From an uncultured Gammaproteobacteria bacterium (GTDB lineage: Bacteria > Patescibacteriota > Microgenomatia > 0-14-0-10-38-17): a stretch of 64,000 bases of DNA. Positions 11,442 through 33,300 of this stretch are shown piece after piece. A model generated the notes under the pieces. The model worked only from the letters and a program-made list of their open reading frames with translations, made no database searches and was not told where the DNA came from. The translations under genes and the position numbers were made by a program. Location of the stretch: contig CAYGEH010000001.1 in NCBI GenBank assembly GCA_964348895.1, forward strand, positions 453,586 through 517,585. Reading direction: 5' to 3'. How positions within the stretch are numbered: the first letter of the stretch is position 1; every line of letters starts with the position of its first letter.

Positions 11442-11457
11442 CTTTACTTTAAAAAAA

Positions 11458-15345: not shown

Positions 15346-15351
15346 GAGACG

Positions 15352-16295: not shown

Positions 16296-16322
16296 GTTCA
16301 CAATCGTGATAGAATAAGGCCT

Positions 16323-16511
16323 ATGGTGGCAAGAGTTGTCAAATTTTTAATAGAAGCACAGGGTGAGCTCAAAAAAGTTGTTTGGCCAACCCAAAAAGAG
16401 ATTGTGAACTTAACCATTGTGGTGTTAGCCGTTTCTTTGGCTGTAGGCCTTTTCTTAACTGGAGCAGACTTTGTTTTTAGTTGGCTAATCAAGTTAATAA
16501 TTGATTATTAA
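16323..16511 (+). CDS. secE: Preprotein translocase subunit SecE
   Basis: 62 aa, with 'ELKKVVWPTQKEIVNLTIVVLAVSLAVGLFL' (single TM). Located upstream of nusG. Confidence 0.8.
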   Translation: MVARVVKFLIEAQGELKKVVWPTQKEIVNLTIVVLAVSLAVGLFLTGADFVFSWLIKLIIDY

Positions 16512-16521
16512 ATTTATTTTT

Positions 16522-17103
16522 ATGGTAGAGGAAAAGAAAAAAACTAAAAATCATTGGGTTATTAGCGAAGGCAATAATCCTGAAGCTAAATGGTATATTC
16601 TTCATACCTATTCTGGTCAAGAGTCTAGGGTGGCTAAGATTTTGCAACAACGAATCCAGTCTTTAAAATTAGAAGGCAGATTTTTCGAGATCTTAATACC
16701 AACAGAAGACAGAATGAAGATAAGAGCAGGGAAGCGCTTCACTAAAGAAGAAATGCTTTTTCCTGGTTATGTTTTTGTCAAAATGATTCTCGACGACAAC
16801 TCTTGGGCGGCCGCAAGGGGAAGCGAAGGGGTGACTGGATTTGTTGGTTCTGGCGATCAACCCACTGCGGTAGCGGAAAAAGAGATTAAGGCGATTGAAA
16901 ACTATTTAGCAACAGAAAAACCTAAATATACCGTTAAATTTTCGACTGGAGAGGCAGTTAAAATTGTTGATGGGCCGTTTACTGGCTTTTTGGGGACAAT
17001 TGACAACATAGACAAAGAGAGGGGGAAGTTACGAGTAATGGTTTCTGTTTTTGGAAGAGAAACCCCAGTAGAATTAGACTTTTTACAAGCAAAGAAAATA
17101 TAA
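16522..17103 (+). CDS. nusG: Transcription termination/antitermination factor NusG
   Basis: NGN domain 'WYILHTYSGQESRVAKIL' and C-terminal KOW 'GEAVKIVDGPFTGFLGTI'. I prefer the ATG at 16522 (just after the secE stop) over the track's TTG at 16501. Confidence 0.85.
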   Translation: MVEEKKKTKNHWVISEGNNPEAKWYILHTYSGQESRVAKILQQRIQSLKLEGRFFEILIPTEDRMKIRAGKRFTKEEMLFPGYVFVKMILDDNSWAAARGSEGVTGFVGSGDQPTAVAEKEIKAIENYLATEKPKYTVKFSTGEAVKIVDGPFTGFLGTIDNIDKERGKLRVMVSVFGRETPVELDFLQAKKI

Positions 17104-17125
17104 GCGAATTGAATGTTGAATAAAT

Positions 17126-17551
17126 ATGGCAAAAAAAATTGTTTCAAAAATTAAATTAAACTTACCAGCAGGAGAGGCGACACCAGCCCCTCCAGTTGGT
17201 CCGGTTTTGGGCCAACATGGAATTCCAATTATGGATTTTGTTAAGCAATATAATGCCGAAACGGCAGAAAAAAAAGGAAGCGTTATTCCAGTTGAAATTA
17301 CTGTTTATGAGGATCGTAGTTTTGACTTTATTACCAAACTACCGCCAGTGGCAGACCTTATCAAGAAAGCACTTAAGTTAGAAAAAGGGTCGGCAGAACC
17401 GGGACGTAATTCAGCGGGAAAGTTAACACAGGAACAAATATCCAATATCGCTAAAGAGAAAATGATTGACTTTAACACCAGCGATTTAGAGTCTGCCCGA
17501 AAAATTATTATAGGAGCAGCCAAGAGCATGGGAGTGGAGGTGGAAAAATAA
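17126..17551 (+). CDS. rplK: 50S ribosomal protein L11
   Basis: '[30 protein letters not shown]' is the diagnostic L11 N-terminus. Confidence 0.95.
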
Positions 17552-18315
17552 TGGGAAGAAAAAAAACGATTGAGATTAGCAAGGATAGCGTGAAAACTAA
17601 AAGCAGGCTTCCTGAAACAAAAGAAGAACTAGTCTCGCCTAAAGAAAAAGAAAATCTGGAAAAGCCCGCTAAAGAAAAAAAGAAAGCTAGGGGGAAAAGT
17701 GAAAAAAAAGTGCTAAAAAAGTCAAAGAAAGGAGTAAACTACCTAAAGGCTCTAAAACAGATAGAAAAGAAAAAAATATATTCTCCAGAAGAAGCGATGT
17801 CTTTGTTAAAGAAGATAGCTTGGGCTAATTTCAATGAGGCGGTTGAGGCACACCTGGTGGTTAAGAGAGAGGGGATTTCGGTTAAGGTTAATTTTCCCCA
17901 TGATCAAGGCAAAAGAAAAACGATTGCCATCGCAGACAATAAAGAAACGATGGCCAAAATAGAAACAGGAAAAATTGATTTTGACATATTATTGGCAAGT
18001 CCCAAAATGATGCCCAAACTAATTCCCTATGCTCGTTTCTTGGGGCCTCGAGGATTAATGCCAAACCCCAAGGAGGGAACGGTTAGTGCCGACCCAGCTA
18101 AGAAAGCAAAAGAACTTCTTGCGGCAGGAGTTATAATTAAAACAGAGAAAAAAATACCCCTAATTCATGTTGTTTTTGGTAGGATTAGTCAAGAATCAGC
18201 TCAGCTAAAAGCAAATCTTGAGGCTGTTGTTAAAGCAGTTGGAAAACAAAACATTAAGAGCTTGGCTGTTTCTACCACCATGAGCCCTGGAATTAAAGTT
18301 GAAATTAGTGATTAG
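17551..18315 (+). CDS. rplA: 50S ribosomal protein L1 with a ~55-aa Lys/Glu-rich N-terminal extension
   Basis: Core 'FLGPRGLMPNPKEGTV' and the following sequence match L1. The N-terminal K/E-rich tail has no counterpart in model-organism L1. Confidence 0.9.
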   Translation: MGRKKTIEISKDSVKTKSRLPETKEELVSPKEKENLEKPAKEKKKARGKSEKKVLKKSKKGVNYLKALKQIEKKKIYSPEEAMSLLKKIAWANFNEAVEAHLVVKREGISVKVNFPHDQGKRKTIAIADNKETMAKIETGKIDFDILLASPKMMPKLIPYARFLGPRGLMPNPKEGTVSADPAKKAKELLAAGVIIKTEKKIPLIHVVFGRISQESAQLKANLEAVVKAVGKQNIKSLAVSTTMSPGIKVEISD

Positions 18316-18591
18316 ATTTTAATAAACACTTTTTTTGTCCGCTAGTGTCATTATAAAACCCCTTTCTTTGTATTCTTTCGAGAAAACAATGCGGTCTTTT
18401 GATTGAAACTATGATTTTGGTTTTCCTAATCTTTTCAGCCAAATTAAATCGCTGTTAAGATTTTATTTCTTGTTATTTTAAGTTGACTGGGAATTAAAAA
18501 GAATAGACCTGAAAGGTCAAAAAGACAAGAAATAAGATAATGAAAAAAACTGAAAGTATAGCTTAAGCTAGCCTAGATTTGATTGCTTTGG

Positions 18592-18625
18592 TTGACACAA
18601 CTGCTTAATTTTGCTACTATTATTT
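18592..18625 (+). promoter_or_regulatory. Sigma-70-like promoter (TTGACA-17 nt-TACTAT) driving the noncoding candidate downstream
   Basis: TTGACA at 18592-18597, a 17-nt spacer and TACTAT at 18615-18620. No ORF follows on this strand for about 900 nt. Confidence 0.4.
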
Positions 18626-18631
18626 TAGTCC

Positions 18632-18795
18632 TGCCATTGAGGGGTAAGACTGCACGAGAGTCTTCCTCACCAAGCAAAAGTGTACGGGATCCGAAAGTTT
18701 CTGGCCCTAAAAAGTCGGAATAGGAACCCACCTGGGCAAACCGGGGAACACTTCTGCAGCAACCTCAGGGGCGGGACTTTTGGTGCTTTTTGTCT
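18632..18795 (+). ncRNA. Candidate structured small RNA (~165 nt, unclassified)
   Basis: A GC-richer island in AT-rich intergenic DNA. It contains a clean hairpin GAGG-GUAAGACU-GCACGAG-AGUCUUCC-CUC (18651-18680). The 5' UGAGGGG can pair with the 3' CCUCAGGGG, closing a ~135-nt multi-stem domain. It has no coding potential. Possible identities are 4.5S/SRP, 6S or RNase P-related RNA; I could not verify any of these by eye. Confidence 0.3.
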
Positions 18796-18834
18796 TGTAA
18801 AAACCTCGTTTCAATAACTAGAAAAAGAAGGGTC

Positions 18835-19491
18835 TCAAAGTATTCCTGTCGCAGAGGGGAGGCTAATAAAAACAAACTCAAAAAAACTAACCGCTGGAAC
18901 CAAAACAAGAGAAACAAGAGATCTTCCGAAAAAGACAGGCAATAGGGCAAAAATTAACAAAAAAACTCCATATCTTTTTAAAACTAAGTCAACAGCTTGG
19001 GCGGTTTTTTCTGGCAAGACACCGATCAAAATTTTGCTACCATCAAGAGGATAAATGGGTAAAAGGTTGAAAACCCCTAAAATTATGTTGAGTCTAATTA
19101 GACTCAACATAAGCCCGCTAATGACAAGGCTGTTTAGTCCCAGAAAATAAACAGGCAAACGAAAAAGACCAATAAAAAGAGCGACAACTAAGTTAACCGC
19201 TGGGCCAGCAAGGGCAATTAGGGCATTGTCTCGGCGAGGCTTGTTAAGATTGAACTCGTCAACAGGAACGGGTTTCCCCCAGCCGAAGCCAAAGAAAAAA
19301 AGCATAATCGTACCGATTGGATCAAGGTGGGCAAGAGGATTAAGGGTTAGTCGACCAGAAAACTTAGCGGTGGGATCACCTAATCGGTTAGCGGCCCAAG
19401 CATGAGCAGCCTCATGAACAGTTAAGGCAAAAAGCAAACTAATAACAAAGAGTAGCACGGAAAAGGGATCAGAGAAGATATTGGCAAACAT
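18835..19491 (-). CDS. M50-family site-2-protease-like zinc metalloprotease (SpoIVFB-like)
   Basis: 'LTVHEAAHAWAANRLGD' (HExxH in a TM helix); polytopic; 218 aa. Confidence 0.75.
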   Translation of the reverse strand: MFANIFSDPFSVLLFVISLLFALTVHEAAHAWAANRLGDPTAKFSGRLTLNPLAHLDPIGTIMLFFFGFGWGKPVPVDEFNLNKPRRDNALIALAGPAVNLVVALFIGLFRLPVYFLGLNSLVISGLMLSLIRLNIILGVFNLLPIYPLDGSKILIGVLPEKTAQAVDLVLKRYGVFLLIFALLPVFFGRSLVSLVLVPAVSFFEFVFISLPSATGIL

Positions 19492-19550
19492 AAATTGAAA
19501 AACTAGCGCTATTGTGTTAGTATAACATAGATAAATTTCTATTTTTAAAA

Positions 19551-19778
19551 ATGCACTGTCAATCTTGTACTAAAAGACCAGTTATGGGTGGCAAAATGAT
19601 TAGGACAGGAACCGGGAAGTGGATAAAAAAACGAGTTAAAGTAAAAAGAAGTCCTAATTTACAAAAGACTACCCTGGTGATTTCTGGTCAAGAAAAAGAA
19701 AAAATTATTTGCACCTCTTGTCTTAAAAAATTTAAGAAAGAAGGGAAGGTGAAGGTGGCCTATTTTGTTGGTCAATAG
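19551..19778 (+). CDS. rpmB: 50S ribosomal protein L28
   Basis: 'CQSCTKRPVMGG...' N-terminus and 'SPNLQKTTLVISGQEKEKIICTSCLKKFKKEGKV' align to L28 ('[29 protein letters not shown]'). Confidence 0.65.
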   Translation: MHCQSCTKRPVMGGKMIRTGTGKWIKKRVKVKRSPNLQKTTLVISGQEKEKIICTSCLKKFKKEGKVKVAYFVGQ

Positions 19779-20159
19779 CTTAAGGCTTCTTTGTTTCCCC
19801 CAAGTTTCCCCAAAAAATATTATTTGTTTCAAGGAAATTCTTCGGTCTGTTTTAATTAAATCTAAGAAAAAAATACTTCAAGTTCTTGGCTTGTTTCGTT
19901 GTTGAGTTGACGACAACACCAAGCCATAAAGATGTTTCCTTTTAAGAACAAAGCTTATTTTTGATCAAAAGAAGTAATTGGCTTGGTGTTTTTGACGGGA
20001 ACAACAGGGCTTATTTTTTTTAATTATTAACTTAACCATATTCTAACTTTATAAAAAAAGAAAAAGATAAATTAAAAAGAAGCGAACCAAAAGCCTTTTT
20101 CTGTGATGCTGGCAATATACCACAATGATTGACAAGGAAGGCAAAAACAGGATCTAGGC

Positions 20160-21056
20160 CTATGACCAAGGAAGCAAGAAAGACTTAGCTAAATCTTTGT
20201 TCCAGGGGATTGGTTTGCCTCCAGATAATTGAACTAAATCAAGTCTAAGACAATTATCTTCCTGGTGAGCCTTAATAATTTTTAACCTTTGGTTTTTAAC
20301 AAAAGTAAAAGTTCCTGGCCAAGAAAAAAAAGCCCTTATTTTTCGGTCAATTTTGTCTGCCAAGCCCTGGTCTCCCAAGAGAGCTCTTTTTAGGTGGTTA
20401 GGCTCAATATAGCCGTCTTGTCGAGAAAGTAATTTGGTGAAAGAGGCTTTTTGGTGTTCTTGGGGTTGGGGGGTAATTTTTTCCTCTAAATAGTCAAAGA
20501 GTTTTTTTTCAAGCAACCTGGCCCCAAGACAGAAAAGCTTTTCAGTTAAGGATTCTTGGGTGTCATTATTTTTAATTAAGGTTTTTTCTTGAGCAATAAT
20601 AGGGCCATGGTCAACTTTTTTGTCTATTAAAAACAAAGAGACACCAGTGGTTTTTTTGCCGCCGAGAATAGCAGAGGCGACGGGAGTTGCTCCTCTTAGT
20701 TTGGGTAAAAGAGAGGGGTGAACATTGATAATTCCTTTAGGAAAAACATTGATTAATTCTTGAGGAACTATTTGACCATAAGCAGCCAAAACGGCAACCT
20801 CTGGCTTAGTTTGGGCGATCTTTTGACAAAGCTGATGGTTTAATTCCTGGGGGGTCAGCAAGGGAAGAGAATTATTTTTAGCAAACTGTCCAACTGGAGT
20901 GGGGGTTAGTATTTGATTTCTGCCCGCAGGCCTTGGAGGTTTAGTAATAACAAGTGTTGTTTTCAGAGAAGAAAGAGAAAGAACTTTTTTTAAAATGATG
21001 ACCGAGGCTTCTTCTGAACCAAAAAAAACAATTGGGATAGCGATTCTTTTTTTCAT
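20160..21056 (-). CDS. fmt: Methionyl-tRNA formyltransferase
   Basis: N-terminal formyltransferase domain ('IVFFGSEEASVIILKKVL', 'VHPSLLPKLRGATPV') plus a C-terminal domain. Located upstream of def. Confidence 0.85.
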   Translation of the reverse strand: MKKRIAIPIVFFGSEEASVIILKKVLSLSSLKTTLVITKPPRPAGRNQILTPTPVGQFAKNNSLPLLTPQELNHQLCQKIAQTKPEVAVLAAYGQIVPQELINVFPKGIINVHPSLLPKLRGATPVASAILGGKKTTGVSLFLIDKKVDHGPIIAQEKTLIKNNDTQESLTEKLFCLGARLLEKKLFDYLEEKITPQPQEHQKASFTKLLSRQDGYIEPNHLKRALLGDQGLADKIDRKIRAFFSWPGTFTFVKNQRLKIIKAHQEDNCLRLDLVQLSGGKPIPWNKDLAKSFLLPWS

Positions 21057-21059
21057 ATT

Positions 21060-21617
21060 TCATAAGGGAAATCCTAGTTTTTGAGGACTAATCTTTTTTA
21101 GTTGATTATCCTCGTTACAGAAAAGCTGGCCCTTTTCTCTAATAACTCTTTGAATAAAAAGCCTTCCGTTTAGGTGGTCTAGTTCGTGTTGAAAAACAAT
21201 CGCCTCTAATCCAGTTAGAACTTTTTTTGTTTTTTTACCATTAAGGCTAAATCGTTGAATTTTGATAGTGGGCCAGCGCTTAACAGCACCATACAAATTA
21301 GGCAAAGACAAACAGCCCTCTAGAAACGGTTGAAGAGAATGGTCTGAATCATGGTCGTTTTCTTCAAGAAGAAAATGTTGTTTTGGGGAAGAATAATCAA
21401 GTATGGCTGGATTAATAAAAATTTCAGGTTGCCTTTGAGGGAGACTCAAAACAAAAACGGCTTGGTCATAGCCAATTTGAGGGGCGGCTAAACCAATACC
21501 CTTATTTGCCAAAGCGTTAATAAGCCTGTTTCCTAGAGATTTAATTTTATGATTAATTTCTAGGACTGGCAAGGCTGGTGTTGTCAAAATTGGATTAGGG
21601 GCGACAATAATTTTCAT
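21060..21617 (-). CDS. def: Peptide deformylase
   Basis: 'EGCLSLP' and 'QHELDHLNG' are the PDF motifs 2 and 3; motif 1 'GLAAPQIG' is also present. Confidence 0.9.
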   Translation of the reverse strand: MKIIVAPNPILTTPALPVLEINHKIKSLGNRLINALANKGIGLAAPQIGYDQAVFVLSLPQRQPEIFINPAILDYSSPKQHFLLEENDHDSDHSLQPFLEGCLSLPNLYGAVKRWPTIKIQRFSLNGKKTKKVLTGLEAIVFQHELDHLNGRLFIQRVIREKGQLFCNEDNQLKKISPQKLGFPL

Positions 21618-21653
21618 TTGAATTTAGTCAACACATTATAGCATTTGGCCAAA

Positions 21654-23705
21654 TCAGAGCTGCTTTAGTAGCTCTTGTGCTTCCCCATGATCGGGGTTTA
21701 AGTATTTAAGCAAAAAAACTAGTGCCCCTCTGGCTTCATCAATTTGATTGTTCTCTTGATAGAATCTGGCTATCCAGTAGTATGCATCTTGATAGTCGGG
21801 CTTTAGATTGATAGAGGTTTTTAGCCAAGCAATTCCTTGATCAAGATTTGTCTGTTGATGGGCCAAAACAGCCAAATTGTAAGTAATTTTAGGATTCATT
21901 GGCGCCAATTTATGAGCCGCCAAAAGAAGCTGATATGAGTCGACCAAATACTGAGGATTAATTCTAGAGAGAAGAAAATATGTTTGTGATTGTTGACGGT
22001 AGAAACCAACCTGATAAGGGCTTAAGTCGATGGTTTTTTTAGCCAAAATCTTAGCCTTATTAGTAAAGTTTTCTGCTTCTTGATTGTTTTGATTTTGACT
22101 AAAAACAACCGCCAGGTGAGCAGAAATAAAAGCAAGCTTGTTGCTATATAGCGGTTCTTTGGGGTTAAGTTGTTTGGCTTTTCGATAATGAAGATAAGAC
22201 TGAAGGAGGCTTCCCTGTTGTAATTCTTTTTCACCACGAGCAAAGTGGTAGTCTGCTAGCCAGTATCGACTTAGAGCTAAAATTAAATTAAGACCAACAA
22301 GAATTATTATAATTAGGGCAAATTTTTGCTGCCCTGACAGGGGGTTAGTGGAGGTCAAAAATGATGATTTTATTTGATTGTTAGAAGTGAAAACAAGGGC
22401 TGGAATTAAAAAGAATAACAGATTAACGGCCACGACTGAAAATCCAAAAAAATTGGTGATTAAGATTGTTAAGTAACCGGCAAAAAGACCCAAAAGAAAA
22501 AAATTTTTTGGGTCTTTTTTGATTGAGGCGAAAAGGAAAACAAGAGTGGCAATAATTAAGATAAAGTAAGCCCCGAAACCAACAAGGCCGGTGTTGGCAA
22601 GATAATTAAGATATTCGTTATGAGCCTTGTTATAGAGAAAATCCCACTCTGATAAAAGGTTGTGGTCTTTGGGTTGATGCCAGTAGTATGAATGAGCGAA
22701 AGTTTCTGGCCCTGTTCCTAAAAAAGGATGATTTTTAAAGACTTGAATCGCCCCTTGCCAAACAACCTTTCTTATGTCGGCAGTAGCACTGCCCAAATCT
22801 GGAGTAGCGCTATCAGCTGTTTCCCATTGGGGTAAAGATTGGGGGCTAATTAACGAAAAGCGTTTAAAGTGACGATTAATTTGCTCAAAGGGAGAAAGAA
22901 ACAAAACAGTTAAAATAAAACTAAAACCCCCAAATAAAACCAAAACTTTTTGATAACTTGATTTAAAAATAGGTCTGATGAGAATCGACAAGAACAGAAT
23001 AAAAAAATAAACTAGCCCAAAAGCTAGAAAACCAGAGCGAGAGCGAGTGAAAATAAGAGCCAAAAAAGCAACCAAGAAAACAAAAATAAAAAAGAAGCGA
23101 CCCTTTGATTTTTTTTGAGTGAAAAAAGCGGGAATCAAAAAGATCAAGCTGCTGATCCAAGCGGCTAACCAATTTGGTTGGCCTAGGCTAGAGAAAATTC
23201 GAGCAGAAACATCTTGGACCCAGAAACGATCATCGATACCTAGTCTTTGTAAAAGACCGTAAATCGAGACAACAATTAGAGCCGCCAAAGAAGCCTTAAG
23301 AAGATTAATGTTTGTTTTTGGAGAGTTAAGGTTACTAACAAGAGCAAAGTAAAGCAGAATATAGGCAGTAACAGACAAAAGACCGCCGTTTTGTCGAGTA
23401 TAATAACCCCAAAAAGAAATGTGAGGATCAATCGAGGTAATGGTGGTAATAATTTGACTTAGAAGAAAAACCATCAAGGGCCAAAAAAGAAAAGTCTTTT
23501 GAAAAATAATTTTTTTTTGAATAATCATTTTAATTATCCAAAACGTCAAGATAACAACAACTACAAGATAAACAAAAACCATTTTATTAAATTCAAACAA
23601 TTCGTGGTTAATAGTGGTAAAAATTAAAGGAGTAAGAAAAAAAAGAAGAAAGAAAGATTTTTCTAAAACTTTTTGACAAATCAGATCAAGTTTCAATGGA
23701 GTCAT
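21654..23705 (-). CDS. Polytopic membrane protein with O-antigen-ligase/polymerase-like (Wzy_C-like) region and C-terminal TPR repeats
   Basis: At least 10 TM helices in the N-terminal 450 aa and TPR-like repeats in the C-terminal ~200 aa ('AYYWIARFYQENNQIDEA'). Confidence 0.5.
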   Translation of the reverse strand: MTPLKLDLICQKVLEKSFFLLFFLTPLIFTTINHELFEFNKMVFVYLVVVVILTFWIIKMIIQKKIIFQKTFLFWPLMVFLLSQIITTITSIDPHISFWGYYTRQNGGLLSVTAYILLYFALVSNLNSPKTNINLLKASLAALIVVSIYGLLQRLGIDDRFWVQDVSARIFSSLGQPNWLAAWISSLIFLIPAFFTQKKSKGRFFFIFVFLVAFLALIFTRSRSGFLAFGLVYFFILFLSILIRPIFKSSYQKVLVLFGGFSFILTVLFLSPFEQINRHFKRFSLISPQSLPQWETADSATPDLGSATADIRKVVWQGAIQVFKNHPFLGTGPETFAHSYYWHQPKDHNLLSEWDFLYNKAHNEYLNYLANTGLVGFGAYFILIIATLVFLFASIKKDPKNFFLLGLFAGYLTILITNFFGFSVVAVNLLFFLIPALVFTSNNQIKSSFLTSTNPLSGQQKFALIIIILVGLNLILALSRYWLADYHFARGEKELQQGSLLQSYLHYRKAKQLNPKEPLYSNKLAFISAHLAVVFSQNQNNQEAENFTNKAKILAKKTIDLSPYQVGFYRQQSQTYFLLSRINPQYLVDSYQLLLAAHKLAPMNPKITYNLAVLAHQQTNLDQGIAWLKTSINLKPDYQDAYYWIARFYQENNQIDEARGALVFLLKYLNPDHGEAQELLKQL

Positions 23706-23770
23706 ATTAACAAACAGTATATAAGTTTTTTAAAGAAAAAGGAGGTATTTTTGGAGATACTAATTCAATT

Positions 23771-23844
23771 TGGTGGACCCGAGGGGAATTGAACCCCTAC
23801 TTTCGCTATGCCATAGCGATGTTCTACCATTAGACTACGGGCCC
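23771..23844 (-). tRNA. tRNA-Ala (anticodon GGC), CCA encoded
   Basis: Acceptor GGGCCCG/CGGGUCC with the G3:U70 alanine identity pair; anticodon stem UCGCU/AGCGA with loop AUGGCAU; T-arm AGGGG-UUCAAUU-CCCCU; 3' ACCA encoded. Confidence 0.85.
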
Positions 23845-23936
23845 CTAACAAGCTCTATTTTATTAGAGGAAGGTGTTTTTGGCAAGAAAGTAGGCTTTTG
23901 TGCTAAAATTAGCCCTGTTAGTTAGGCCTAAATTGG

Positions 23937-24010
23937 GCCACCTTAGCTCAGTTGGTTAGAGCAACTGTTTTGTAAACAGTAGGTCCTCGGTTCAAATCCG
24001 AGAGGTGGCT
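23937..24010 (+). tRNA. tRNA-Thr (anticodon UGU)
   Basis: Acceptor GCCACCU/AGGUGGC; D-arm GCUC-AGUUGGUUA-GAGC; anticodon stem ACUGU/ACAGU with loop UUUGUAA; T-arm CUCGG-UUCAAAU-CCGAG. Confidence 0.85.
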
Positions 24011-24023
24011 CTTGAACTCTTTT

Positions 24024-24095
24024 GCCGATGTGGCTCAGTGGCAGAGCACGTCTTTGGTAAAGACGGGGTCATGGGTTCGATTCCCATCATCGGCT
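24024..24095 (+). tRNA. tRNA-Thr (anticodon GGU)
   Basis: Acceptor GCCGAUG/CAUCGGC; anticodon stem CGUCU/AGACG with loop UUGGUAA; T-arm AUGGG-UUCGAUU-CCCAU. Confidence 0.85.
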
Positions 24096-24327
24096 CTAGT
24101 TATTTAAATGTAACAGCAGAGGAAAGATTATTTAAAAAAATTAAGAAATTTAAAACAGATTAGCCTTATTTATTTTTATTTTCTTTGTCTGCTGATTGAA
24201 AGTTGGTTTGTTTTTAGGAAAATTGTAAGATTAACATCTTTTGAGTACTCTAATTACTCTTTAAAATTAGCCGACACTTCGGTTATAAACCTCAATTTTC
24301 TTCTTTTAGAAGCGAATTTTATTTGTT

Positions 24328-24363
24328 ACTTGACATTGATATATTTTTATCGATATAGTTAAG
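24328..24363 (+). promoter_or_regulatory. Sigma-70-like promoter (TTGACA-18 nt-TATAGT) upstream of the small HTH gene
   Basis: 'cTTGACAttgatatatttttatcgaTATAGTtaagagaaggaaag', followed by the RBS AAGGAAAG and the ATG at 24390. Confidence 0.4.
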
Positions 24364-24389
24364 AGAAGGAAAGAAAAATTGAAAATTTT

Positions 24390-24569
24390 ATGGAAGAATT
24401 AAAAACAACCCTTTATACTGTTTCTGAGGCGGCTAAGATTTTGCGTTTCTCTCCAGTAACCCTATATCGCTGGATTGCTCAGGGGAAAATAAAGGTAGCA
24501 AAGCTTGGAACCAGAAGCTATAGAATTAAAAAAAGACATCTGGAAGAGCTGATGGAAAATAAAAAGTAA
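24390..24569 (+). CDS. Small excisionase/AlpA-family HTH DNA-binding protein (59 aa, below the ORF-track cutoff)
   Basis: Hand translation: MEELKTTLYTVSEAAKILRFSPVTLYRWIAQGKIKVAKLGTRSYRIKKRHLEELMENKK. HTH_17-type pattern 'LxTVxEAAxxLxxSxxTLYRWIxxGKI', good RBS, and a stop 5 nt before the giant-gene ATG. Confidence 0.6.
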   Translation: MEELKTTLYTVSEAAKILRFSPVTLYRWIAQGKIKVAKLGTRSYRIKKRHLEELMENKK

Positions 24570-24574
24570 AAGAC

Positions 24575-27394
24575 ATGCTCTGCCCAAAAAACTTCAACAA
24601 TGTAGTTTTAAAAATAAAAAAGCTATTGTCTGGGAACAGGAGCATTTTATTGAAAATAAAACCACAAACAAAGAAAAGAAAAAGAAGCTGTCTAGAGAAC
24701 AAGGGAAGCCTTAAAAAGATATCCTTGATTTTTTCGATTAAGACCTTTAAAAAGAAAAGTTTTACTAGAAAAAAAGTTGATTGCTTTTTTTTACGTGCCC
24801 ACGAGGTCTTTGATCTACTTGGGCGACATTTTGTTATTAAACATAAAACACTAAGACATTCCTCTTGTAATCGCAGAAACAACACTGTTTATAGAAACTT
24901 AAAAAAAAGAAACAACTGGCTGTTTAGTCTTAAAGAAAAAACCCTAAAGGGTTTAAAAATATTTTTGTTGACAACAAAGAATGTTTTTAAAAAATTATTT
25001 CACCTCGCTGTCAACAAGAGTAAGTCTTTATACTATTATATAAAAGAGGGGCGCTTTCGAGAAATTACTCCAGCTTTTGTAGCACACTCGGTACGACGAC
25101 ACTTGCCACTTTTTTTAGCTGTCTTGTTTATTACGCCTGCGGCGATTTTTTTGGGAATTTTTATTTATTCTAGATTAAACCAGCCACCTGCTTATGCGAC
25201 CCCTTTTACTGGTGCAATCAAGATTTCTCGGCAGTCTACTACTCTGTCTACCGACGGTGACTGGCTTACTTCGTTGGCACATTCAGGAGATGGGGTGACT
25301 GGTGACGCCGAGTCAGGAACCTTTAATCCAATTCATCCAGGTGGAACCTCAGATGGCACAGCAGGATCGGGCTTGGCGATTGGCTATATGACGGCTGGGG
25401 CGACAACCTATGCCACTACTGAGTTTATTGGTTTTAGGCCTAGTGCCAACGGAAACTTGACTGGCATAATGCTAGTTTTAGAGAACACCCTGTCTGCTTC
25501 TCGATCGGATGTGGACATAGTGGTTGAATTATTACGTTTTCCTTCAGCCGTTTGCACCACTACTTGCTCTAACTATGTGACTGGCTCTTTAAACTCTTTT
25601 ACCTTTCCAGCAGATACAGAGGTTTTAAGAAGAACTGTCTGGCAGTTTAATCAAGGTTTGTCGGGGGAAAACATGGCACCAGGAAACTTTGGTAGAGCAA
25701 CTTTTGATTTCCGTTTTGATTCGCCGGTAGCAGTAAACACTAGTAGTCATTATGGAATTAGGATTATTAACATGGGGTCAGGAGCACCAGTGTTTGGTGC
25801 GTGGGCAGCCAATGCCCCTTTTGCCAATTTTCCTATAATTAATGGTGCTTTTCGTACAATTGGGGTAAAAAGTATTGACAACGTCAATGCACCAACAGTT
25901 AACATGCCATTGGCTTTGTCTGGTAATAGCGTGATTATTTTAGGAACTTCACCTACACAAAGCTCTGGTATGGTAGCCGGAAATTCACTTGCTGGCGTGG
26001 GCTTGCCGACAATTAGAAGAACGGAGAACGAACATTGGACAGCAACCTATTCTTTAACCAATAACAACTGGACAATTGGGGGTTCAGTTTCTGGAGTTCA
26101 AAACAGAAGATTAACTACAGCGACGACTGGTGGTACAGGGCCGTCTTGGGTTAATGATGGAGTGGCAATAACACCACTGGCTGTTGACTCGGCCGCCTCT
26201 AATCGACTCTGTGTTACTTCAAGCGCTGGTTTTGCTGTTAATCAAACCATTGATCTTTGGGATTCGGACACAGCCACGCTGGGATACACTATTGCCTCAG
26301 TTAATGCTTCAGATGGTAGTTGTCCAGGAAATGGGCCATCAATTATTACCACCGCTGCGACCGTTGTTGGTTACACTGTTAATAAAAATGCCACTGTGGC
26401 CCAGGCGGTTTGGAAACAAAGAATTATCCAGGGGGCGGAAACAGCCTTTTCTCAAAACATGCCAACAACTAGCAAAATCTGTGTAGTTGACGCCTCGCAG
26501 TTTTCTGTTCGGCAGGGGGCAGCAGCTAATTTAGCTATTTGGGACAATAATTCGGTTATTTTGGCAACCAACGCCATTACTGCCATTACCGTTGATGATA
26601 TAGCCTGTGTTAATCCAACTCACGATGGCTTAACCTTAGCCTCTACGATTACCGCCGGAACCTATACAATTGACCAAAACGCTAGAGTAGCAGAAATTTC
26701 TACAACGCTTTCTAATATCGGAACGCCAGCTAATAATGCAACTATGCGCTGGACAACCTTTAATCATACCCAAAACCCAACCGCTTCTCCTCATCTTGCC
26801 AGAACCAGCTCGGTGATGATTGGTTTAGCAAAAAACTTGGCACCGGCCCAATCGGGCGTCAATTACCCCTTTCTTTCTAACAATCATATATTTTTTACAG
26901 CCTACGGCGACGCCAATACCCTGGCTCCAGCCGACGGCGACATTGTTGTTGTGGGAAATGGCAGGCCCGATCCAGACAGTGCTGATTCTCCGAATTTAAT
27001 AGATGATTTAAATTGGTCAGGGAAACAGGAACATGTGATTACTATTGATCGACATTGGAGTGCACCCCTGGTTTATACTGGTTCGTATGGCAGTGCAGTT
27101 TTAGATGGTGCCGGCGCTAGGGCTGATTTTTCCGCTTATTCGCAAAACGCAGGCTGGATTTCGGCGGTGATTGCTCCGAGTTCGCAGTTGCTTTTTGGCA
27201 ATGCCCTAACACTCATTATCGGATTACCATTCCCGGAAAAATTGTTATTGACTCTGATGCCTCTTTGGCTTTTGGGAAACAAGGAGCGGCTATTCCCGAC
27301 TCTTCATTTCAAAACATTTATTTTGACAACGTCAGCCCGGCGGTTTCCACCACGCTTACTACCAACTCTGACACTGGTACGGTGCTTACCGTAA
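24575..27394 (+). CDS. Giant surface protein, N-terminal ORF (frame A). The real reading leaves this frame at ~27.21 kb; sequence after that is out-of-frame read-through
   Basis: Only one in-frame ATG (24575), followed by a ~170-aa K/R-rich stretch over AT-rich DNA, so the true start is uncertain. A TM anchor 'LPLFLAVLFITPAAIFLGIFIY' lies at about 25.10-25.17 kb. T/S/G/A/N-rich ectodomain with repeated 'IWDNNSV...GYTIDQNA' modules that recur in the next ORF. Confidence 0.6.
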   Translation: MLCPKNFNNVVLKIKKLLSGNRSILLKIKPQTKKRKRSCLENKGSLKKISLIFSIKTFKKKSFTRKKVDCFFLRAHEVFDLLGRHFVIKHKTLRHSSCNRRNNTVYRNLKKRNNWLFSLKEKTLKGLKIFLLTTKNVFKKLFHLAVNKSKSLYYYIKEGRFREITPAFVAHSVRRHLPLFLAVLFITPAAIFLGIFIYSRLNQPPAYATPFTGAIKISRQSTTLSTDGDWLTSLAHSGDGVTGDAESGTFNPIHPGGTSDGTAGSGLAIGYMTAGATTYATTEFIGFRPSANGNLTGIMLVLENTLSASRSDVDIVVELLRFPSAVCTTTCSNYVTGSLNSFTFPADTEVLRRTVWQFNQGLSGENMAPGNFGRATFDFRFDSPVAVNTSSHYGIRIINMGSGAPVFGAWAANAPFANFPIINGAFRTIGVKSIDNVNAPTVNMPLALSGNSVIILGTSPTQSSGMVAGNSLAGVGLPTIRRTENEHWTATYSLTNNNWTIGGSVSGVQNRRLTTATTGGTGPSWVNDGVAITPLAVDSAASNRLCVTSSAGFAVNQTIDLWDSDTATLGYTIASVNASDGSCPGNGPSIITTAATVVGYTVNKNATVAQAVWKQRIIQGAETAFSQNMPTTSKICVVDASQFSVRQGAAANLAIWDNNSVILATNAITAITVDDIACVNPTHDGLTLASTITAGTYTIDQNARVAEISTTLSNIGTPANNATMRWTTFNHTQNPTASPHLARTSSVMIGLAKNLAPAQSGVNYPFLSNNHIFFTAYGDANTLAPADGDIVVVGNGRPDPDSADSPNLIDDLNWSGKQEHVITIDRHWSAPLVYTGSYGSAVLDGAGARADFSAYSQNAGWISAVIAPSSQLLFGNALTLIIGLPFPEKLLLTLMPLWLLGNKERLFPTLHFKTFILTTSARRFPPRLLPTLTLVRCLP
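27127..27394 (+). other. -1 frameshift junction between the two ORFs of the giant gene
   Basis: Frame B (codons at position 1 mod 3) opens after a TGA at 27124-27126. Frame A (2 mod 3) runs to a TAA at 27392-27394. Protein-like composition switches from A ('...APSSQLLFGNALT') to B ('HYRITIPGKIVIDSDASLAFGKQGAAIPDSS...') near 27205-27215. Local landmarks are a T5 run at 27192-27196 and, in frame A, the heptamer G_GGA_AAC at 27274-27280, whose -1 slip enters frame B. Confidence 0.6.
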
Positions 27395-30300
27395 CTTCCA
27401 CCTCTGGTTTTAATGTCGGCGATACCATTGTTATTCGCGATAACAACTCGGTAGCGATAACTAGATTGGTTGCTGCGATTGAAAATGCTACCCAGATTAG
27501 GGTAACAGCCGCGTTGGTTGCTGGCTATACGATAGATCAGAGTGCTTTTGTTGCCAAGGGCCCAACCACAGAATTACCTACTGGTGCTGATCGTCGAGCC
27601 GGAGTTTATACTATGACCGGCTTAATTGGAACAACACAAACCAACTTTCGGGTTGGTCGAGTAAGCTTGTATGGTCAGGGTTCAGATAGTTTTAGGACAA
27701 TGAAAAGTAATTTAGCAGTTGATGTTGAGGGTGATATTAATACTGGTTTCTTGGGAAACAATCTAACTGACTCTGGTAACACTTGGGTTGATGTTAAAGA
27801 CAATGTGGTGGGGAATTGGCAACCCCTAGATAGCATTGCTGTAGGTGGTGCCACTAATCAACTAGCGGACAACGAATTTTCTTCGATGAGAATGGGGGGA
27901 ACAGATGATGCTAACCAAATGCCAGTTTGGACTGGTCTTTTAACTGCTGGAGGCAGAAACGCCCTGCCAACCCCCAACATGGAGGTGGCAGAAATTGGAA
28001 CAATTCCCCTAACCGATATTTATAATAGTAATTTTAATGCTGGTTCGTCACTTTTTTCTTCTAATTACAACAATTCTAGTGTCTGGACGATTTTTGGCGA
28101 TGGTGCTAATAACGAAGTTAGCGATATGGTTTATTTTGGTGATCGGGGAAACAACATGTTTTATTCTTTAGAATTTAATCTTGGTATAACCATGGTGGCC
28201 AACGCTTCTTATGTTTGGGAATTTTGGAACGGAAGCGCTTGGCAAGGATTTACTCCTCGAGATGCTTATAGATATGAACCAAGAACGGACTACTGCATGC
28301 CACTTTCTGCTAATACAATTAGAAATTCTTTTACTCTGACTGTTCCCGAAGGTGGCACAAATTTTGGCTTAGATCAAATTGTGGCTATTAGCGACAATGA
28401 TTCGCCGAGAATTTTTCGAAGATTGGGAACTAGCGCTCCTTCTTCCACCACTTTGACTTTTTCTGAACCCCTGCCGGCTGGTTATGACACTGCTCAAGGT
28501 GCTCGAGTTTGTCGTTTAAGTGGCGGTCGCTGGATCGCCTTTGATCCAGCGAATATTTTTACAGCCAACACTGGTCGAAGAATTTTGAGTTGGACGCCAT
28601 CAAATTTGGGTAACGCGCCAGCTAGAACAACAGTTAATGGTGTGAACGCTTTTTGGGTAAGAGCGAGAATATCTACCCTTACTTCTTGGGAAGTCAATCC
28701 GGCTAATCAAACCACTCCAGTTAGCATGAGTGGATTAGAAAGAATTTCTTCTGGAGCTATTACGATGAGCTCTGGAGTACAAGAAGCTAAAATTACCGAA
28801 ATCACCCCTGGTTCGCTTTATAATCCCAACGAACAGTGGACCCTGGAATATGGCAATTCACCGGGATGGATAGAAACTATTCGTGGGGCTGCGGTTGGAC
28901 CACTTTCAGCCCCCTACCTTCATCGTGTTTCTGGAGGAGTTCTTAATTTTAGTCCTACCAACGTTCAAAACTGGTCAGTTCACAATAGCAATGTCCCTTT
29001 GGGCACAACAGACTATACAATGAGTGCTTTGGTTAGAATGGATATGCCAGCAGACGCCACTAGTCGTCGCTTAGGGCTTTTAATGCGTCAAAGCCTAGAC
29101 GGTGATGGCTATGCTGCTTTAATTACAAAAACTGCTTCTGTTAACACCGTTCAGTGGTGGACAACGTTAGCTGGTGTTCCCACCGCCATTGGTTCAGCAA
29201 CTTCTAAAACCTTTGATGTTGACACTTGGTATTGTTTAAAGGCAGAGGTTATCGGAACAACATTAAGAGCTAAATTTTGGGCAACAACGGATTGTGCTGT
29301 TGGAGAGCCAGGACCCTGGGATGTAACCGTTATCAATACTACTTATACTAATGGTCGAATTGGCCTTTATACTGGTTCGGCGACAGCCTCTCAGGGGGCA
29401 AGGGCAATGTTTGATCAGGTTTCTGTTATTGGCGGGGCTAATTTTTCTGATAACTTTAGTGATACTCAAACTTGGAGGGTAGAGGGTTCTATCCAGGGTT
29501 TAATTGGTGCAGCCACTCCGGGGACACCGTTTGCCAGCAATTTTATTAATTTTACTATAAAACATAGGGGCGGCTGGAATGGAGTGGTCAGCCCAGAAAT
29601 TGGCGATAAGATTTATTTAACTTCAACCGCTATTCGTAGTTATAGAGGACTAGATCCTTCGGTGCCGATTGTCACCAATAACAATAACACTAAATATGAG
29701 GTTTGGGATTTTGAATGGACTGGTTCGGCTTATGCGGTTACAGGGAGTGCTTCTGGCGCAGCAGGGACAGCTATCCCAGGCTTGACTTACACTGCTCCCA
29801 ACAATCAAATTTCTTTAAGAATAAACCCAGGAGCCCCCACGGCAACAAGGTTTGGCAACAGAATGCTTTTATTACAAGACAACCTTTTGCGCAGCAATGG
29901 CTCTTGGACTGGAGTAAATGGGATAGGAAGTGCGGCCTTGTTTTACCCTAGTTATACTTTAACAGGCAGTCCGGTTGCTACCCGCTACAACATTGAGGGA
30001 CAGAGTGGTACAGCCAATGCTCGACAACGAGGCACGATTGATTTTTGGTTTAAAACTAACTACGAGGGTAGCCCTTCTTCTGTAACTAATTCAGAAGGAA
30101 TGTATTTAATTGATTATGCTAATCAGGGTAACACTGACCGCCTGTTTGTTAGACACACCTCCGAAGGCTTTTTAGAAGCATCAATTTGGGCAGGTGCCAC
30201 TCAGGGACCGATTTTACGACAAAGCTTTTCTGCTGAGGCTGGTCGCTGGTATCATTTTCGCTTAGTGTGGTCCGAAGACGCCACTCCAACAATCCACAGA

Positions 30301-33300
30301 AGAGCTTGGCTTGATGGAACACCCTTTTCTATAAACCAAGGAAGCTCTCTTGCGGCGCGTGGTATTAATGCAGGGTTAATAAGAATAGGCAATAACTGGA
30401 CTTATAATGCGGCTTTTGATGGCGCCATTGACGAATTGGCTATTTTTGATGAAGATCTTGACACTTCTGGCGCTTGTAACTGGGGATCGTTTACTGTTCC
30501 TGCTTCGCCCTGGCTTGGGGCTGAAACCATTGGCTGTGCTGCCGACAGAAGCGGAATTAATATTTTTCGGGCTAGTTTTGATTCTGCCATGAACCCGCAG
30601 GAAGGGTTTATTTGGGCCGACTATGCATATGGGAACCCAGCTGTGATTTTTACCAATGGTGCAGATACAGGAAACGAGAGATTTAGAATAATTACTTATC
30701 CCGAAAGAACCCGTGTTTGGATAGATAATACTGGTGAAAAGTATACGCCTTCAGCCAGAATTAAATATGGTTCTGGTCATCTTGAAAACAATGCCCTGAC
30801 AACATTAGCTGGCTGGTCTCATAATTTTACTTTCCACCACAAGGCGGCCCGTGATTCAGAAACTAATCCGACTCATTCGCCAGTTTTAAATTTGAGGCGT
30901 AGTATTCATATTTGGTCTGAGGAAAACTTTACTTATACTGGGGCTACGACTGGTGCGCCGATCAATTCTGGTTTAGGTTTTGGTTTAACCGCAGTCGGTC
31001 TTTCTGGTTTGGCCAACATGAACATTAGCCATTTGTCGATGGAGAATCAGTTTAGTAATTTTTCCATTATGACGAACCCCTTTACTTCGATCAGACCATT
31101 TCCCAGCCAAGTTATATCTAAATCAGTTTTTTACAATTACTTTGATCGGGCTTACACGGTTTCTGCCAAAACCCAGGGTTCTAATTATGTTGGTGCCTAT
31201 TTTGTGACGACTAACTTTGCTGCAGCCAACATTGGTACAGGTTATAATGCTTCCGCCTCGCAAAACGTTGGCATTGATGGGAGTATTTTTATGGGTCACC
31301 GAAACAGTTTTGTCACTGTGCCCCCAGCAGCGGCAAATGGTGCGGCAGCGTTTTTCTCTGGCCGTCTTTACACTATTCGTAATAGCGAATTTCATAATAA
31401 TGGTATTTCTGGTTCAGGCACCACAGGGGCACTGAACTTCAGTGCTGGTGTAGCGAAATTGACCATTGAAAATAACATTTTTTCTATCAATACCAATGGA
31501 GTTCGGCTTTATGGTAATTCTTTTGTTGATCTTGCCAATAATGTCTTTGACGGTCATGTTTCTGACGATGTAATCACTGTTGCTGGTGGATATGGTTCTG
31601 GTATCCGTTCCGCCCAATCTTTCTCCTCGGTGTTTGTTAGAGACACTGGGAGTGTTTTGGGTCGAGGATTATGGAATGAGGCTGATATTAATTTACCTCC
31701 TAATACCGCCACTTTTGAGGCAGAATCAATGTTGCAGTTTATTGGTGAGGGCACATCTTTGTTTAGTCCGATTTTGTTTGGAACAGTGGATTATTTGAAT
31801 ATGGGACGAGTGCCAGAAGAATATTTTCACACGACAATTCCAGGAACAGAGATTCGGCTTGGTTCTGGCAAAGATATTGTTAATTTGACGACTTTCGGCA
31901 ACATGCGCACCACTGGCGGAGGCTTATCGGACACAACTGTTCGCACAAGTGGTGGTTATGCTTGGCGACTAGACCCTCGAAGTTCTGATGTTGCCCTAGA
32001 TTATACCGCTAAAGTAGTAGGCGTAGCTGGAAAGCCCCTGGCTGTTACTGGCTATTTACGAATTAACGAGGACTATGGATCTTCTGGTTTACCAACAGTA
32101 ACGCTTTCTGGATTGGGAATGGCAGGGCCAAATTTGACTTGGACGGCCCAAGCTTCTTCTAATGTTTGGCAGCAATTTGTGGTTTCTGGTACGCCAACAG
32201 AATCAGCCCTAGCCGAAGTGAAAATAAGCGTTAGTCTCGAGGGTGTGGTGGTGGCCGATTCTGGTACAAGTCAAATTATTGCTAATCCGATAGGTAATTA
32301 TTTGCCAGCCTTAGTTGAAGATGTTAATAAATCTTGGAGACCAAACCAGTGGGTTGGATTTTTAATGAGAGACAGCAACGGTAAGATTTTTGAAATTGTT
32401 AGAAACACCGGTCAGCTTTTGTATGTGAAGGGGATTGTAGCACCACACCTTTTAAGTACTACTTTTACTGCGGCAACTCCGGGAGACTATATTATTTTTC
32501 GTCAACCAATGGTTTATTTAGACGATGTTTCAGTTTTGTCTGGAACGGTTGACACAGGCACCCTAGACTTACATATTGCTGGTCAACCGGTTTCACCTTG
32601 GCTTGCGACTGGTCTGACTGCCGAATCAGTTTGGAGTGCTCAATATGGTGTTTTTGCTGATATTACTGGCTCTTTTGGTCAACTTATGCAAGATGCCCTG
32701 GTTGCTCGGTATGCCAATGTGCTTGATCCCTCGCCAACCACAATTTCTTTTAACACCAACTTAACGGCCTCTGCTGATGATTTTTATAATGAAGGAGTAA
32801 TTATATTCACTGAAGGTCAAAACAGGGGAGTGGTAAGGCGCATTTCTGCTTACGGTGGTGCCAGTAAAACCATTACCATTGCTCCGCCTCTTCCTTTTGC
32901 TCCGAAAAATGGGGACAGATTTGCCGTTTTGGCCGCAACTAGCTTTTCGGCCGGTGGTACTGGTGGGGCCAGTGCGGCGGAAATTTGGAACTATGCTGTT
33001 AGATCTCTAACGGACGCCACCCTAAACTCTGGCAGTTTAGCAACGAGTTTTGACATAGCAGCGATTCAATCTAGTCTAACTACAATTTTGTCCCAAACCA
33101 ATAACATTGTGGCAATAAAAACAAAAACAGACACGATTAATTGGGCCGACATAATCGGACTTATAACTACCACAGGTCAAATTAGGGCCAAGACCGACAC
33201 AATAAATTGGAGCGACATTTCCGCTGTTAAAACCAGAACTGACACAATAAACTGGAACGATGTTACTGGTATCAAATTAAACACAGACACAATTGTTTGG

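Follow-up and report, generated by a model that had tools for sequence, protein, structure and literature searches.

The 64-kb stretch of contig CAYGEH010000001.1 that we analyzed (hereafter, the window) raises the question of whether a cluster of three tRNA genes marks the point at which an accessory block entered the chromosome, and whether that entry stranded rpmG and tRNA-Trp away from secE, nusG, rplK, and rplA. The block carries a small helix-turn-helix (HTH) gene, a giant gene for a surface protein, and a gene for a PrsW-like protease. Both claims were made in an earlier description of the sequence (the original prediction), whose listed tRNAs, HTH genes, secE-nusG-rplKA genes, rpmG, tRNA-Trp, and giant-gene block are all present where it placed them (Table 1). 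Comparison with related loci supports the first claim and overturns the second. We consider it likely that a mobile cassette without an integrase was inserted next to a tRNA-Thr gene, that the break in synteny is older than this insertion, and that the HTH protein acts as a regulator.

The relatives that inform these conclusions (L007; L008, L009, and L010; L011; and L012) were found via a homologue search followed by exact look-ups. Their core proteins are 55 to 88% identical to those of the window (NusG 87%, RplK 85%, MreB 83 to 87%, and Wzy 57 to 61%), and a more distant locus, L025, was used as the outgroup (Wzy 40%, MreB 55%). The contigs of L009 and L012 end at or before the tRNA cluster. 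Closest to the window are L001, L003, and L004, independent assemblies that are 100% identical to it across the left junction and the block, and L002, a strain 96% identical to it. A contig scan with the fmt protein matched only an unrelated Acidobacteriota locus. The NCBI homologues of the Wzy_C/TPR protein adjacent to the cluster carry the names Microgenomates and Candidatus Shapirobacteria; the host is an ultra-small, Shapirobacteria-like bacterium of the Microgenomates group, within the Candidate Phyla Radiation (CPR).

The insertion itself is plain. In L007, L008, and L011, the backbone runs from Wzy through tRNA-Ala, tRNA-Thr(UGU), and tRNA-Thr(GGU) to rpmG, tRNA-Trp, fn3, cohesin, MreB, and MreC, and the 59-aa HTH, giant, and PrsW genes are absent from this site in all three and in L025. 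BLAST homology of the window with the same three relatives ends at 24099 and resumes at 37172, 31 nt before rpmG, which is 72 to 74% identical to theirs. The segment at 24100-37171 is an insertion that begins 0 to 3 nt past the 3' end of tRNA-Thr(GGU), and the 96%-identical strain carries it at the same site. The spacer between tRNA-Thr(GGU) and rpmG measures 18 nt in L025, 205 nt in L008, 531 nt in L007, 537 nt in L011, and 13,106 nt in the window. Because the spacer of the outgroup is only 18 nt, the compact junction of tRNA-Thr with rpmG represents the ancestral state, and the block was gained. The proposal that the tRNA cluster is the insertion point of the accessory block is borne out by this comparison with L007, L008, L011, and L025.

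The same junction has received other DNA. A gene for a 91- to 94-aa GIY-YIG protein directly follows tRNA-Thr(GGU) in L007 (9106-9390) and L011 (9150-9425), and palindromic repeats accompany it, among them five tandem 19-nt palindromic units (AGCCAAGTCAGACTTGGC) at 9477-9583 of L011. L008 holds a perfect 58-nt direct repeat (9311-9368 and 9448-9505; 137 nt apart, with 79 nt between the copies) that comprises the last 21 nt of tRNA-Thr(GGU) and a 37-nt downstream hairpin and lies just before the rpmG ribosome-binding site; it looks like either an att-type scar or a 137-bp tandem duplication. Since three different occupants are found at one tRNA-Thr(GGU) junction, its 3' end is an insertion hotspot, and the GIY-YIG genes and the L008 repeat thereby lend support to the hotspot that the original prediction had suggested.

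Seven independent metagenome contigs (L001, L002, L003, L004, L009, L010, and L012) end within ~1.2 kb of the tRNA cluster, which could reflect structural variation in the population at the hotspot or the trouble that assemblers have with tRNA repeats or AT-rich sequence. Such a concentration, of at least seven ends at one locus, is also what would be expected if the block had been misjoined to the cluster at repeated tRNA sequences. This explanation is exceedingly improbable. The segment of L004, which comes from a different ENA sample, spans 16553-24895, and that of L001 spans 23645-34569, both at 100% identity to the window; the L001 contig, at 40.7 kb, is long enough that it should extend beyond the right end of the block; the left junction recurs in strain L002; and the source contig of the window is 691 kb long. 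Because L001, L003, and L004 are 100% identical across it, the left join is not an assembly artifact.

The second part of the question, whether the insertion broke an ancestral gene order, has a different answer. Linkage of rpmG and tRNA-Trp to the secE operon is documented in the Bacilli and inferred for the ancestral Proteobacteria (PMC8046335). All of the genes of that ancestral operon, rpmG-tRNA-Trp-secE-nusG-rplKA(-rplJL) (Brandis 2021, PMC8046335), are present in the window, where tRNA-Thr-rpmG-tRNA-Trp and secE-nusG-rplK-rplA remain units; the two units, however, are apart, and rplJ-rplL with its L10 leader precedes secE. The distance from rpmG-tRNA-Trp to secE is 21 kb in the window, and the two are equally separated in L008, which lacks the block, once 13 kb are discounted for it. 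There the order is rplJ-rplL-secE-nusG-rplK-rplA-M50-(rpmB, S11 peptidase)-fmt-def-Wzy-tRNAs-rpmG-tRNA-Trp; L009 and L012 follow it up to their contig ends, and L007 and L011 show agreeing parts. In L012 it is rplJ-rplL, and not rpmG-tRNA-Trp, that lies ahead of secE, and the placement of the L10 leader, rplJ, and rplL upstream of secE instead of downstream of rplA recurs in L008, L009, and L012. The outgroup has tRNA-Tyr, tRNA-Thr(GGU), rpmG, and tRNA-Trp in a row, with neither secE nor nusG within 10 kb of rpmG.

Simple insertion, moreover, could not have produced the order of the window, because removal of the block would still place rpmG beyond rplA, at a distance of 5.4 kb filled by housekeeping genes, and not upstream of secE. 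The same separation in cassette-free L008 therefore refutes the idea that rpmG-tRNA-Trp-secE-nusG synteny was broken by the insertion; the original prediction had itself named such a relative as grounds for rejecting it. This family of CPR bacteria lost the link between rpmG-tRNA-Trp and secE before it gained the cassette; the separated units and the position of rplJ-rplL are a family-level rearrangement unrelated to the cassette, and the odd location of rpmG-tRNA-Trp is a family trait and not the mark of an island.

What, then, was inserted? The first gene of the block encodes a 59-aa protein that scores 50.1 bits with TIGR01764, the NCBIfam model of the excisionase-family domain (cut-off, 28.8), and whose best PHROG match is labeled "excisionase and transcriptional regulator." Only three homologues, 71 to 78% identical, were found among 5.8 billion proteins searched; the two that were looked up (L023 and L024) each immediately precede a homologue of the giant gene, a more distant one (46%) does likewise in L022, and all three of these adjoin the giant gene and not an integrase. 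In four lineages (the window, L022, L023, and L024), 5 to 23 nt separate the HTH gene from the giant gene downstream. In the window the giant-gene ATG (24575) follows the HTH stop codon by 5 nt, and both this ATG and the TTGACA-18-TATAGT promoter are conserved in L023 and L024; Moranbacteria locus L014 has a MerR_1-type HTH gene in the same position. Because of this tight linkage in four lineages, the 59-aa protein is most likely the transcriptional regulator of the cassette rather than an excisionase. The leader motif upstream of it, in which AATTACT is invariant in the window, L022, L023, and L024 (n = 4), marks the approximate left end of the cassette sequence common to other genomes, and an 8-bp palindrome within the motif, GAGTACTC, present in two of the loci, is a candidate operator.

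The original prediction had pointed to a second excisionase-family HTH gene, at 14671-14892, on the other side of the ribosomal block. Its position stands; its meaning as a trace of a mobile element does not, for it lies between WecG and the rplJ leader, in divergent orientation, in L008, L009, and L012 at 87 to 91% identity and is a conserved core gene that belongs to no island. This protein too passes TIGR01764, and its best NCBIfam family is BldC (NF033787), a small MerR-type regulator, at 47.6 bits, below the cut-off of 77, a resemblance at the level of the domain only. Because a core gene carries the same domain, a TIGR01764-type domain alone does not signal excision, and the label "excisionase family" on a CPR gene need not mean a mobile element. 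Like Xis and other TIGR01764 proteins and the BldC-like small MerR-type proteins, the 59-aa protein consists of a single winged-HTH domain and passes both TIGR01764 and HTH_17. It differs from Xis in having no partner recombinase and in its fixed promoter-proximal place in the giant-gene operon, and it is akin to BldC by position, whereas by sequence it scores 17.3 bits against the cut-off of 77.

A search for the machinery of integration returned little. No integrase or recombinase is encoded among the open reading frames (ORFs) of the 64-kb window, the block holding the HTH, giant, and PrsW genes only, and a tblastn search with the tyrosine integrase of Moranbacteria locus L014 found nothing in the window. 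The 24-nt tRNA-Thr 3' end occurs there once only, up to 3 mismatches being tolerated. The absence of an integrase and of tRNA 3'-end repeats, already remarked upon in the original prediction, is confirmed within these 64 kb. The att-like repeats that it proposed to look for near 24.0-24.4 and 36.4-37.6 kb did not materialize: a repeat search of 23.7-37.6 kb gave short chance matches only. One 26-nt inverted match was rejected as an att-like repeat, its second arm being inside the rpmG coding sequence. Without an integrase or att site, and fixed upstream of the giant gene, the HTH gene is unsupported as an excisionase or mobile-element mark.

These results bear on an alternative in which the block is a decayed integrative island, introduced by a tyrosine integrase at the 3' end of tRNA-Thr(GGU), with HTH_17 as its excisionase and the integrase and att sites since lost. 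The start of the insertion immediately past the tRNA, the TIGR01764 and PHROG assignments of the HTH protein, the resemblance of the L008 tRNA-end repeat to the trace of an integrase, and the tyrosine integrase that lies 3 kb from the cassette in L014, together with LysM/CHAP and TrbL genes, are all in keeping with it. Nevertheless, we think it unlikely, given a 64-kb window devoid of integrase and tRNA-end repeat, annotated flanks in L013 and L015 that likewise contain no integrase, a same-domain protein at 14671 that is a conserved core gene, and an HTH gene that is operon-like, at a short distance from the giant gene and behind a conserved promoter in four lineages, which is unexpected for an excisionase. 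An integrase is found near the cassette in just one of the four loci with Pfam-annotated flanks (L014, as against the window, L013, and L015). Because only L014 has one, we regard the cassette as cargo and not as a self-integrating element. In L014 (23238-28459), the cassette is followed by the tyrosine integrase, a LysM/CHAP peptidoglycan hydrolase, and a TrbL_3 protein, a set that may belong to a conjugative or integrative element able to carry the cassette.

The block as cargo resembles the tRNA islands of the P4 and integrative-and-conjugative-element types in its location at a tRNA 3' end, its absence from relatives, the reuse of its site, and its distant homologues. Unlike those islands, it has no integrase, att direct repeats, or foreign synonymous-site composition, and its cargo is a single three-gene cassette and not a mosaic. 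It is an ordinary tRNA-adjacent genomic islet without an integrase.

The largest of the cargo genes is now in two pieces. At 27205 the loss of one base divides the giant gene into ORFs of 939 and 3073 aa; residues 109-908 of the first and all of the second are collinear with single genes of 3,700 to 4,300 aa in L013, L014, and L015, and restoration of one base yields 3,970 codons without a stop. This is one gene split by a recent frameshift. In the reconstructed frame, the ratio of nonsynonymous to synonymous substitution rates (dN/dS) against L002 is 0.10 to 0.14 on both sides of the frameshift, and it exceeds 1 in the wrong frames, which argues for purifying selection followed by recent disruption. 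A long-dead pseudogene was rejected on the same grounds, dN/dS being ~0.1 on both sides. Frameshifts occur at differing positions in four loci: the window, L002 (at window position 25020), L015 (ORFs 7354-8010 and 8001-19151), and L019 (ORFs 1107-11348 and 11228-12854). The gene is intact in L013, L014, L017, L018, and L020. Such splits might represent recent inactivations, population-level on/off variation, or errors of assembly. Between 25575 and 27575, identity to L002 is only 89 to 94%, compared with 98 to 99.6% at 30.6-34.5 kb and 100% in the HTH gene, and this N-terminal portion of the ectodomain has double the synonymous rate (dS, 0.215 versus 0.106), which suggests a recombinant or hypervariable segment.

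The giant protein has only 29 homologues among the 5.8 billion proteins, and its C-terminal part is 42 to 64% identical to homologues 3,400 to 4,400 aa in length. In the predicted layout, a basic cytoplasmic head leads into a first transmembrane (TM) helix (residues 175-201). Some 3,400 aa of ectodomain follow, which include a LamG domain, a beta-helix-like region, a coiled region, and the 15-aa KTDTIxW repeats; the protein then has second and third TM helices at 3632-3651 and 3733-3756 and ends in two SH3_3 domains. The 45-nt (15-aa) repeat, KTDTIxWxDVxxI, lies in tandem at 33100-33570, and its copy number varies among homologues, with many more copies in L015. Solved structures gave only weak matches to the giant protein, of pentraxin/LamG-like and SH3 kinds. 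A defense system was rejected, since a PADLOC scan returned generic HTH matches only. Scans of viral contigs found no relative of the giant protein and a weak match only for the HTH protein; a phage origin was rejected on these scans, a Phage_BR0599 match being below threshold. Predatory and episymbiotic bacteria also have giant surface proteins, and the giant genes of the Omnitrophota (bioRxiv 10.1101/2023.11.21.568195) offer a comparison in kind: they too encode very large, mostly extracellular proteins with lectin-like and beta-helix-like parts (predicted, in our case), in a lineage thought to be host dependent. The protein of the window nonetheless belongs to another family that shares only generic annotated domains with them, is smaller (~4,000 aa), is predicted to be membrane anchored at both ends, and resides in a mobile cassette of three or four genes.

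The last gene of the block is convergent with the giant gene, the two sharing 19 nt where they meet, and its product scores 31.5 bits with PrsW-protease (PF13367; cut-off, 23.5). L013, L014, L015, L017, L018, and L020 each have a homologue downstream of their giant gene, and seven cassette PrsW homologues agree without exception in the EExxK, SExxFY, H, and HxxxN motifs (E65, E66, K69, H128, H157, and N161). The protein passes Pfam PrsW-protease and keeps EExxK and HxxxN, as do the PrsW/CPBP metalloproteases, in which we take the EExxK and HxxxN/D motifs to be catalytic. Solved structures gave no match to the PrsW-like protein. PrsW of Bacillus subtilis is the site-1 protease of the anti-sigma factor RsiW; compared with it, the cassette protein is much shorter (142 to 170 aa), has no nearby sigma/anti-sigma pair, and is found in constant linkage with a giant surface protein, to which a class-A beta-lactamase-like protein is usually added.

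The gene for the beta-lactamase-like protein, 47 to 57% identical among loci, lies downstream of every other giant homologue with an available flank. It is absent from the window, although PrsW is present. In L014, L015, L017, L018, and L020, the giant gene is followed by the beta-lactamase-like gene and then by PrsW, an order shared by L013, where PrsW is unannotated; the pair is convergent with the giant gene in L013, L014, and L015 and co-directional with it in L017, L018, and L020. HTH_17, the giant surface protein, and PrsW, joined in the other loci by the beta-lactamase-like protein, form a conserved, rare CPR cassette. We found no description of it in the literature searched, in which it appears to be undescribed.

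The cassette has not stayed in one place. The flanks of L015 are syntenic with window positions 1-13 kb (LeuRS 34%, ComEA 33%, ComEC 27%, metallo-beta-lactamase-fold [MBL] protein 33%, M16 37%, NDK 37%, and PEGA 32% identity), and there the cassette lies between tRNA-Arg(CCU) and tRNA-Pro(CGG) (7076-7148 and 20986-21060), two neighbors with 86 nt between them in the window (11209-11442). The same backbone has here a second site of insertion with tRNA genes on both sides. The L022 cassette adjoins M16 and NDK, the L024 cassette follows WecG, and the contexts in L013, L014, L017, L018, L020, and L023 are unrelated. The cassette relocates among sites, often beside tRNA genes.

It has probably also been transferred horizontally among distant CPR groups, because its proteins are far more alike than those of the backbone: between the window and L015, the giant proteins are 57 to 61% identical over more than 3,000 aa and the PrsW proteins 52.5%, against 26 to 37% for seven backbone proteins. 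Across hosts with core proteins 27 to 50% identical, cassette proteins reach 52 to 66%. The identity of giant proteins to that of the window is flat, at 57 to 66%, whatever the distance of the host, while that of core proteins ranges from 26 to 88%. Several giant homologues (50 to 64%) are named Candidatus Moranbacteria (Parcubacteria group) at NCBI, and the host of the window is of the Microgenomates group.

The guanine-plus-cytosine (GC) content rises to 0.41-0.46 at 25-35 kb, from ~0.37-0.38 elsewhere, and was considered as a mark of foreign origin. GC at third codon positions (GC3) is 0.34 to 0.37 in the giant gene and 0.28 to 0.39 in core genes; the excess is at second positions (GC2, 0.47 to 0.53). 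The GC of the giant gene is 0.03 to 0.09 above that of its flanks in each of the seven loci compared. Because the rise is confined to GC2, goes with a composition rich in Thr, Ser, Gly, and Ala, and is the same in every host, it is not evidence of foreign origin, and we rejected it as such. The codon-usage check across the block, which the original prediction had called for, likewise found a host-like GC3 without a foreign signature. Either the transfer is old enough for amelioration to have occurred, or the donor had a similar GC content.

A different history would make the block ancestral, situated between tRNA-Thr and rpmG or nearby, lost from L007, L008, and L011, and kept similar among genomes by constraint. 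The window, L015, L022, and L024 do have the cassette in one and the same conserved backbone; the GC3 is fully host-like; the dN/dS of ~0.1 denotes strong constraint; and the L008 scars and the GIY-YIG genes of L007 and L011 could be secondary events that followed a deletion. We judge this history to be very unlikely, however, in light of the 18 nt that separate tRNA-Thr(GGU) from rpmG in the outgroup, the different position of the cassette in each genome (at tRNA-Thr/rpmG, at tRNA-Arg/tRNA-Pro, and after WecG), the flat identity of the giant proteins set against the wide range of the core proteins, and the unrelated contexts of the Moranbacteria homologues.

Insertion of a mobile cassette remains our preferred account, and several points weigh against it. 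The comparison draws on only three to four relatives and one outgroup. With no visible att repeats, integrase, or recombination scars in the window, the mechanism of insertion is one that we infer. GC3 equals that of core genes, which leaves no compositional mark of recent foreign origin, and the higher GC of the giant gene is common to every host. Four genomes hold the cassette in the same ~25-kb backbone, at three different points, and this shared backbone could instead reflect old residence with local shuffling. Linkage is the sole evidence for a regulatory role of the HTH protein, and its gene lies upstream of the giant gene in only five of ~10 loci. The frameshifted giant gene, finally, may mean that the cassette is nonfunctional in the strain of the window.

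In the sequence of events that we favor, tRNA-Thr(GGU) originally stood almost directly before rpmG and tRNA-Trp, in a trio already apart from secE-nusG-rplKA. The ancestor of the species then gained the 13.07-kb cassette just past tRNA-Thr(GGU), and the cassette would have arrived as passive cargo, whether by recombination after DNA uptake or in a larger element since lost. The HTH protein would regulate the cassette operon, and a recent one-base deletion has split the giant gene in the strain of the window. Competence-type genes are present at 1993-4763 and 42832-43980 (ComEA-like, ComEC-like, an MBL-fold protein, and DprA, the last identified only by its synteny with L007 and L008) and are relevant to the idea of DNA uptake.

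A bolder proposal, which we offer as doubtful, is that the cassette, as a self-contained module for host interaction or for the surface, spreads without any integrase between deeply divergent CPR classes, by natural transformation and then recombination at highly conserved tRNA and ribosomal-protein genes. Recombination anchored in this way would explain the recurrence of the cassette at different tRNA-flanked points of one backbone. If the proposal were true, the task of processing or installing the giant protein would fall to PrsW and the beta-lactamase-like enzyme.

The cargo, which is rare, strongly conserved, and probably exchanged horizontally, is the more useful part of these findings. 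It couples a ~4,000-aa surface protein, predicted to be doubly anchored, with an intramembrane protease and, usually, with a beta-lactamase-like enzyme, and its function would presumably lie in surface or host interaction. CPR bacteria are thought to live attached to host cells, and the cassette is a candidate for a factor that determines attachment or host range. Tests at the population level could exploit its presence or absence and the frameshift variation in its giant gene.

Table 1. Coordinates, strands, and supporting evidence for the features of the 64-kb window discussed in the text
Feature	Position	Strand	Evidence and remarks
L10 leader (Rfam RF00557)	15181-15350	+	63 bits; ahead of rplJ-rplL
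L10 leader-rplJ-rplL-secE-nusG-rplK-rplA	15181-18315	+	Rfam and Pfam
secE	16323-16511		Pfam
nusG	16501-17103		Pfam
rplK	17126-17551		Pfam
rplA	17551-18315		Pfam
Second small HTH gene, MerR_1/HTH_17	14671-14892 (ORF 14671-14907, ATG at 14892)	-	Pfam
tRNA-Ala(GGC)	23771-23844	-	ARAGORN and Rfam; first of the three-tRNA cluster; same position in L007, L008, L010, L011, and L012
tRNA-Thr(UGU)	23937-24011	+	ARAGORN and Rfam; kept in relatives
tRNA-Thr(GGU)	24024-24096	+	ARAGORN and Rfam; 3' end is the left edge of the insertion
Lineage-specific inserted segment, 13.07 kb	24100-37171	.	Leader, HTH_17 gene, giant gene, and PrsW-like gene
Conserved leader motif TTTTGAGTACTCTAATTACTC	24237-24262	+	Alignment of regions upstream of HTH genes (window, L022, L023, and L024)
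Sigma-70-like promoter, TTGACA-18 nt-TATAGT	24330-24359	+	11 of 12 consensus positions; upstream of HTH_17 gene
Gene for 59-aa HTH_17/TIGR01764 protein	24390-24569	+	Pfam, E 7e-17; first gene of the cassette
Giant gene, N-terminal part (ORF 1)	24575-27394	+	True frame stops at 27204; last 63 codons out of frame
One-base deletion relative to L002, GCAATGC-CCTAAC	27205	+	Indel listing
Giant gene, C-terminal part	27205-36486 (ORF 2, 27265-36486)	+	Pfam Laminin_G_3 and two SH3_3
PrsW/CPBP-like protease gene	36468-36980	-	Pfam PrsW-protease; last gene of the cassette
rpmG (ribosomal protein L33)	37203-37376	+	Pfam Ribosomal_L33, E 4e-20
tRNA-Trp(CCA)	37416-37488	+	ARAGORN and Rfam; follows rpmG in L007, L008, L011, and L025 too

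Two minor observations concern the backbone. The Peptidase_S11/Beta-lactamase2 protein of the relatives had no BLAST match to the beta-lactamase-like gene of the cassette, and the two are hence unrelated; its gene (311 to 350 aa) lies between fmt and rpmB in L008, L011, and L012, and the window has a 381-bp gap in its place, at 19779-20159. The remaining window ORFs of at least 110 aa, most of them scanned against Pfam and those at 40-46 kb and 1-4.8 kb identified from the annotations of relatives, are, outside the block, housekeeping genes.

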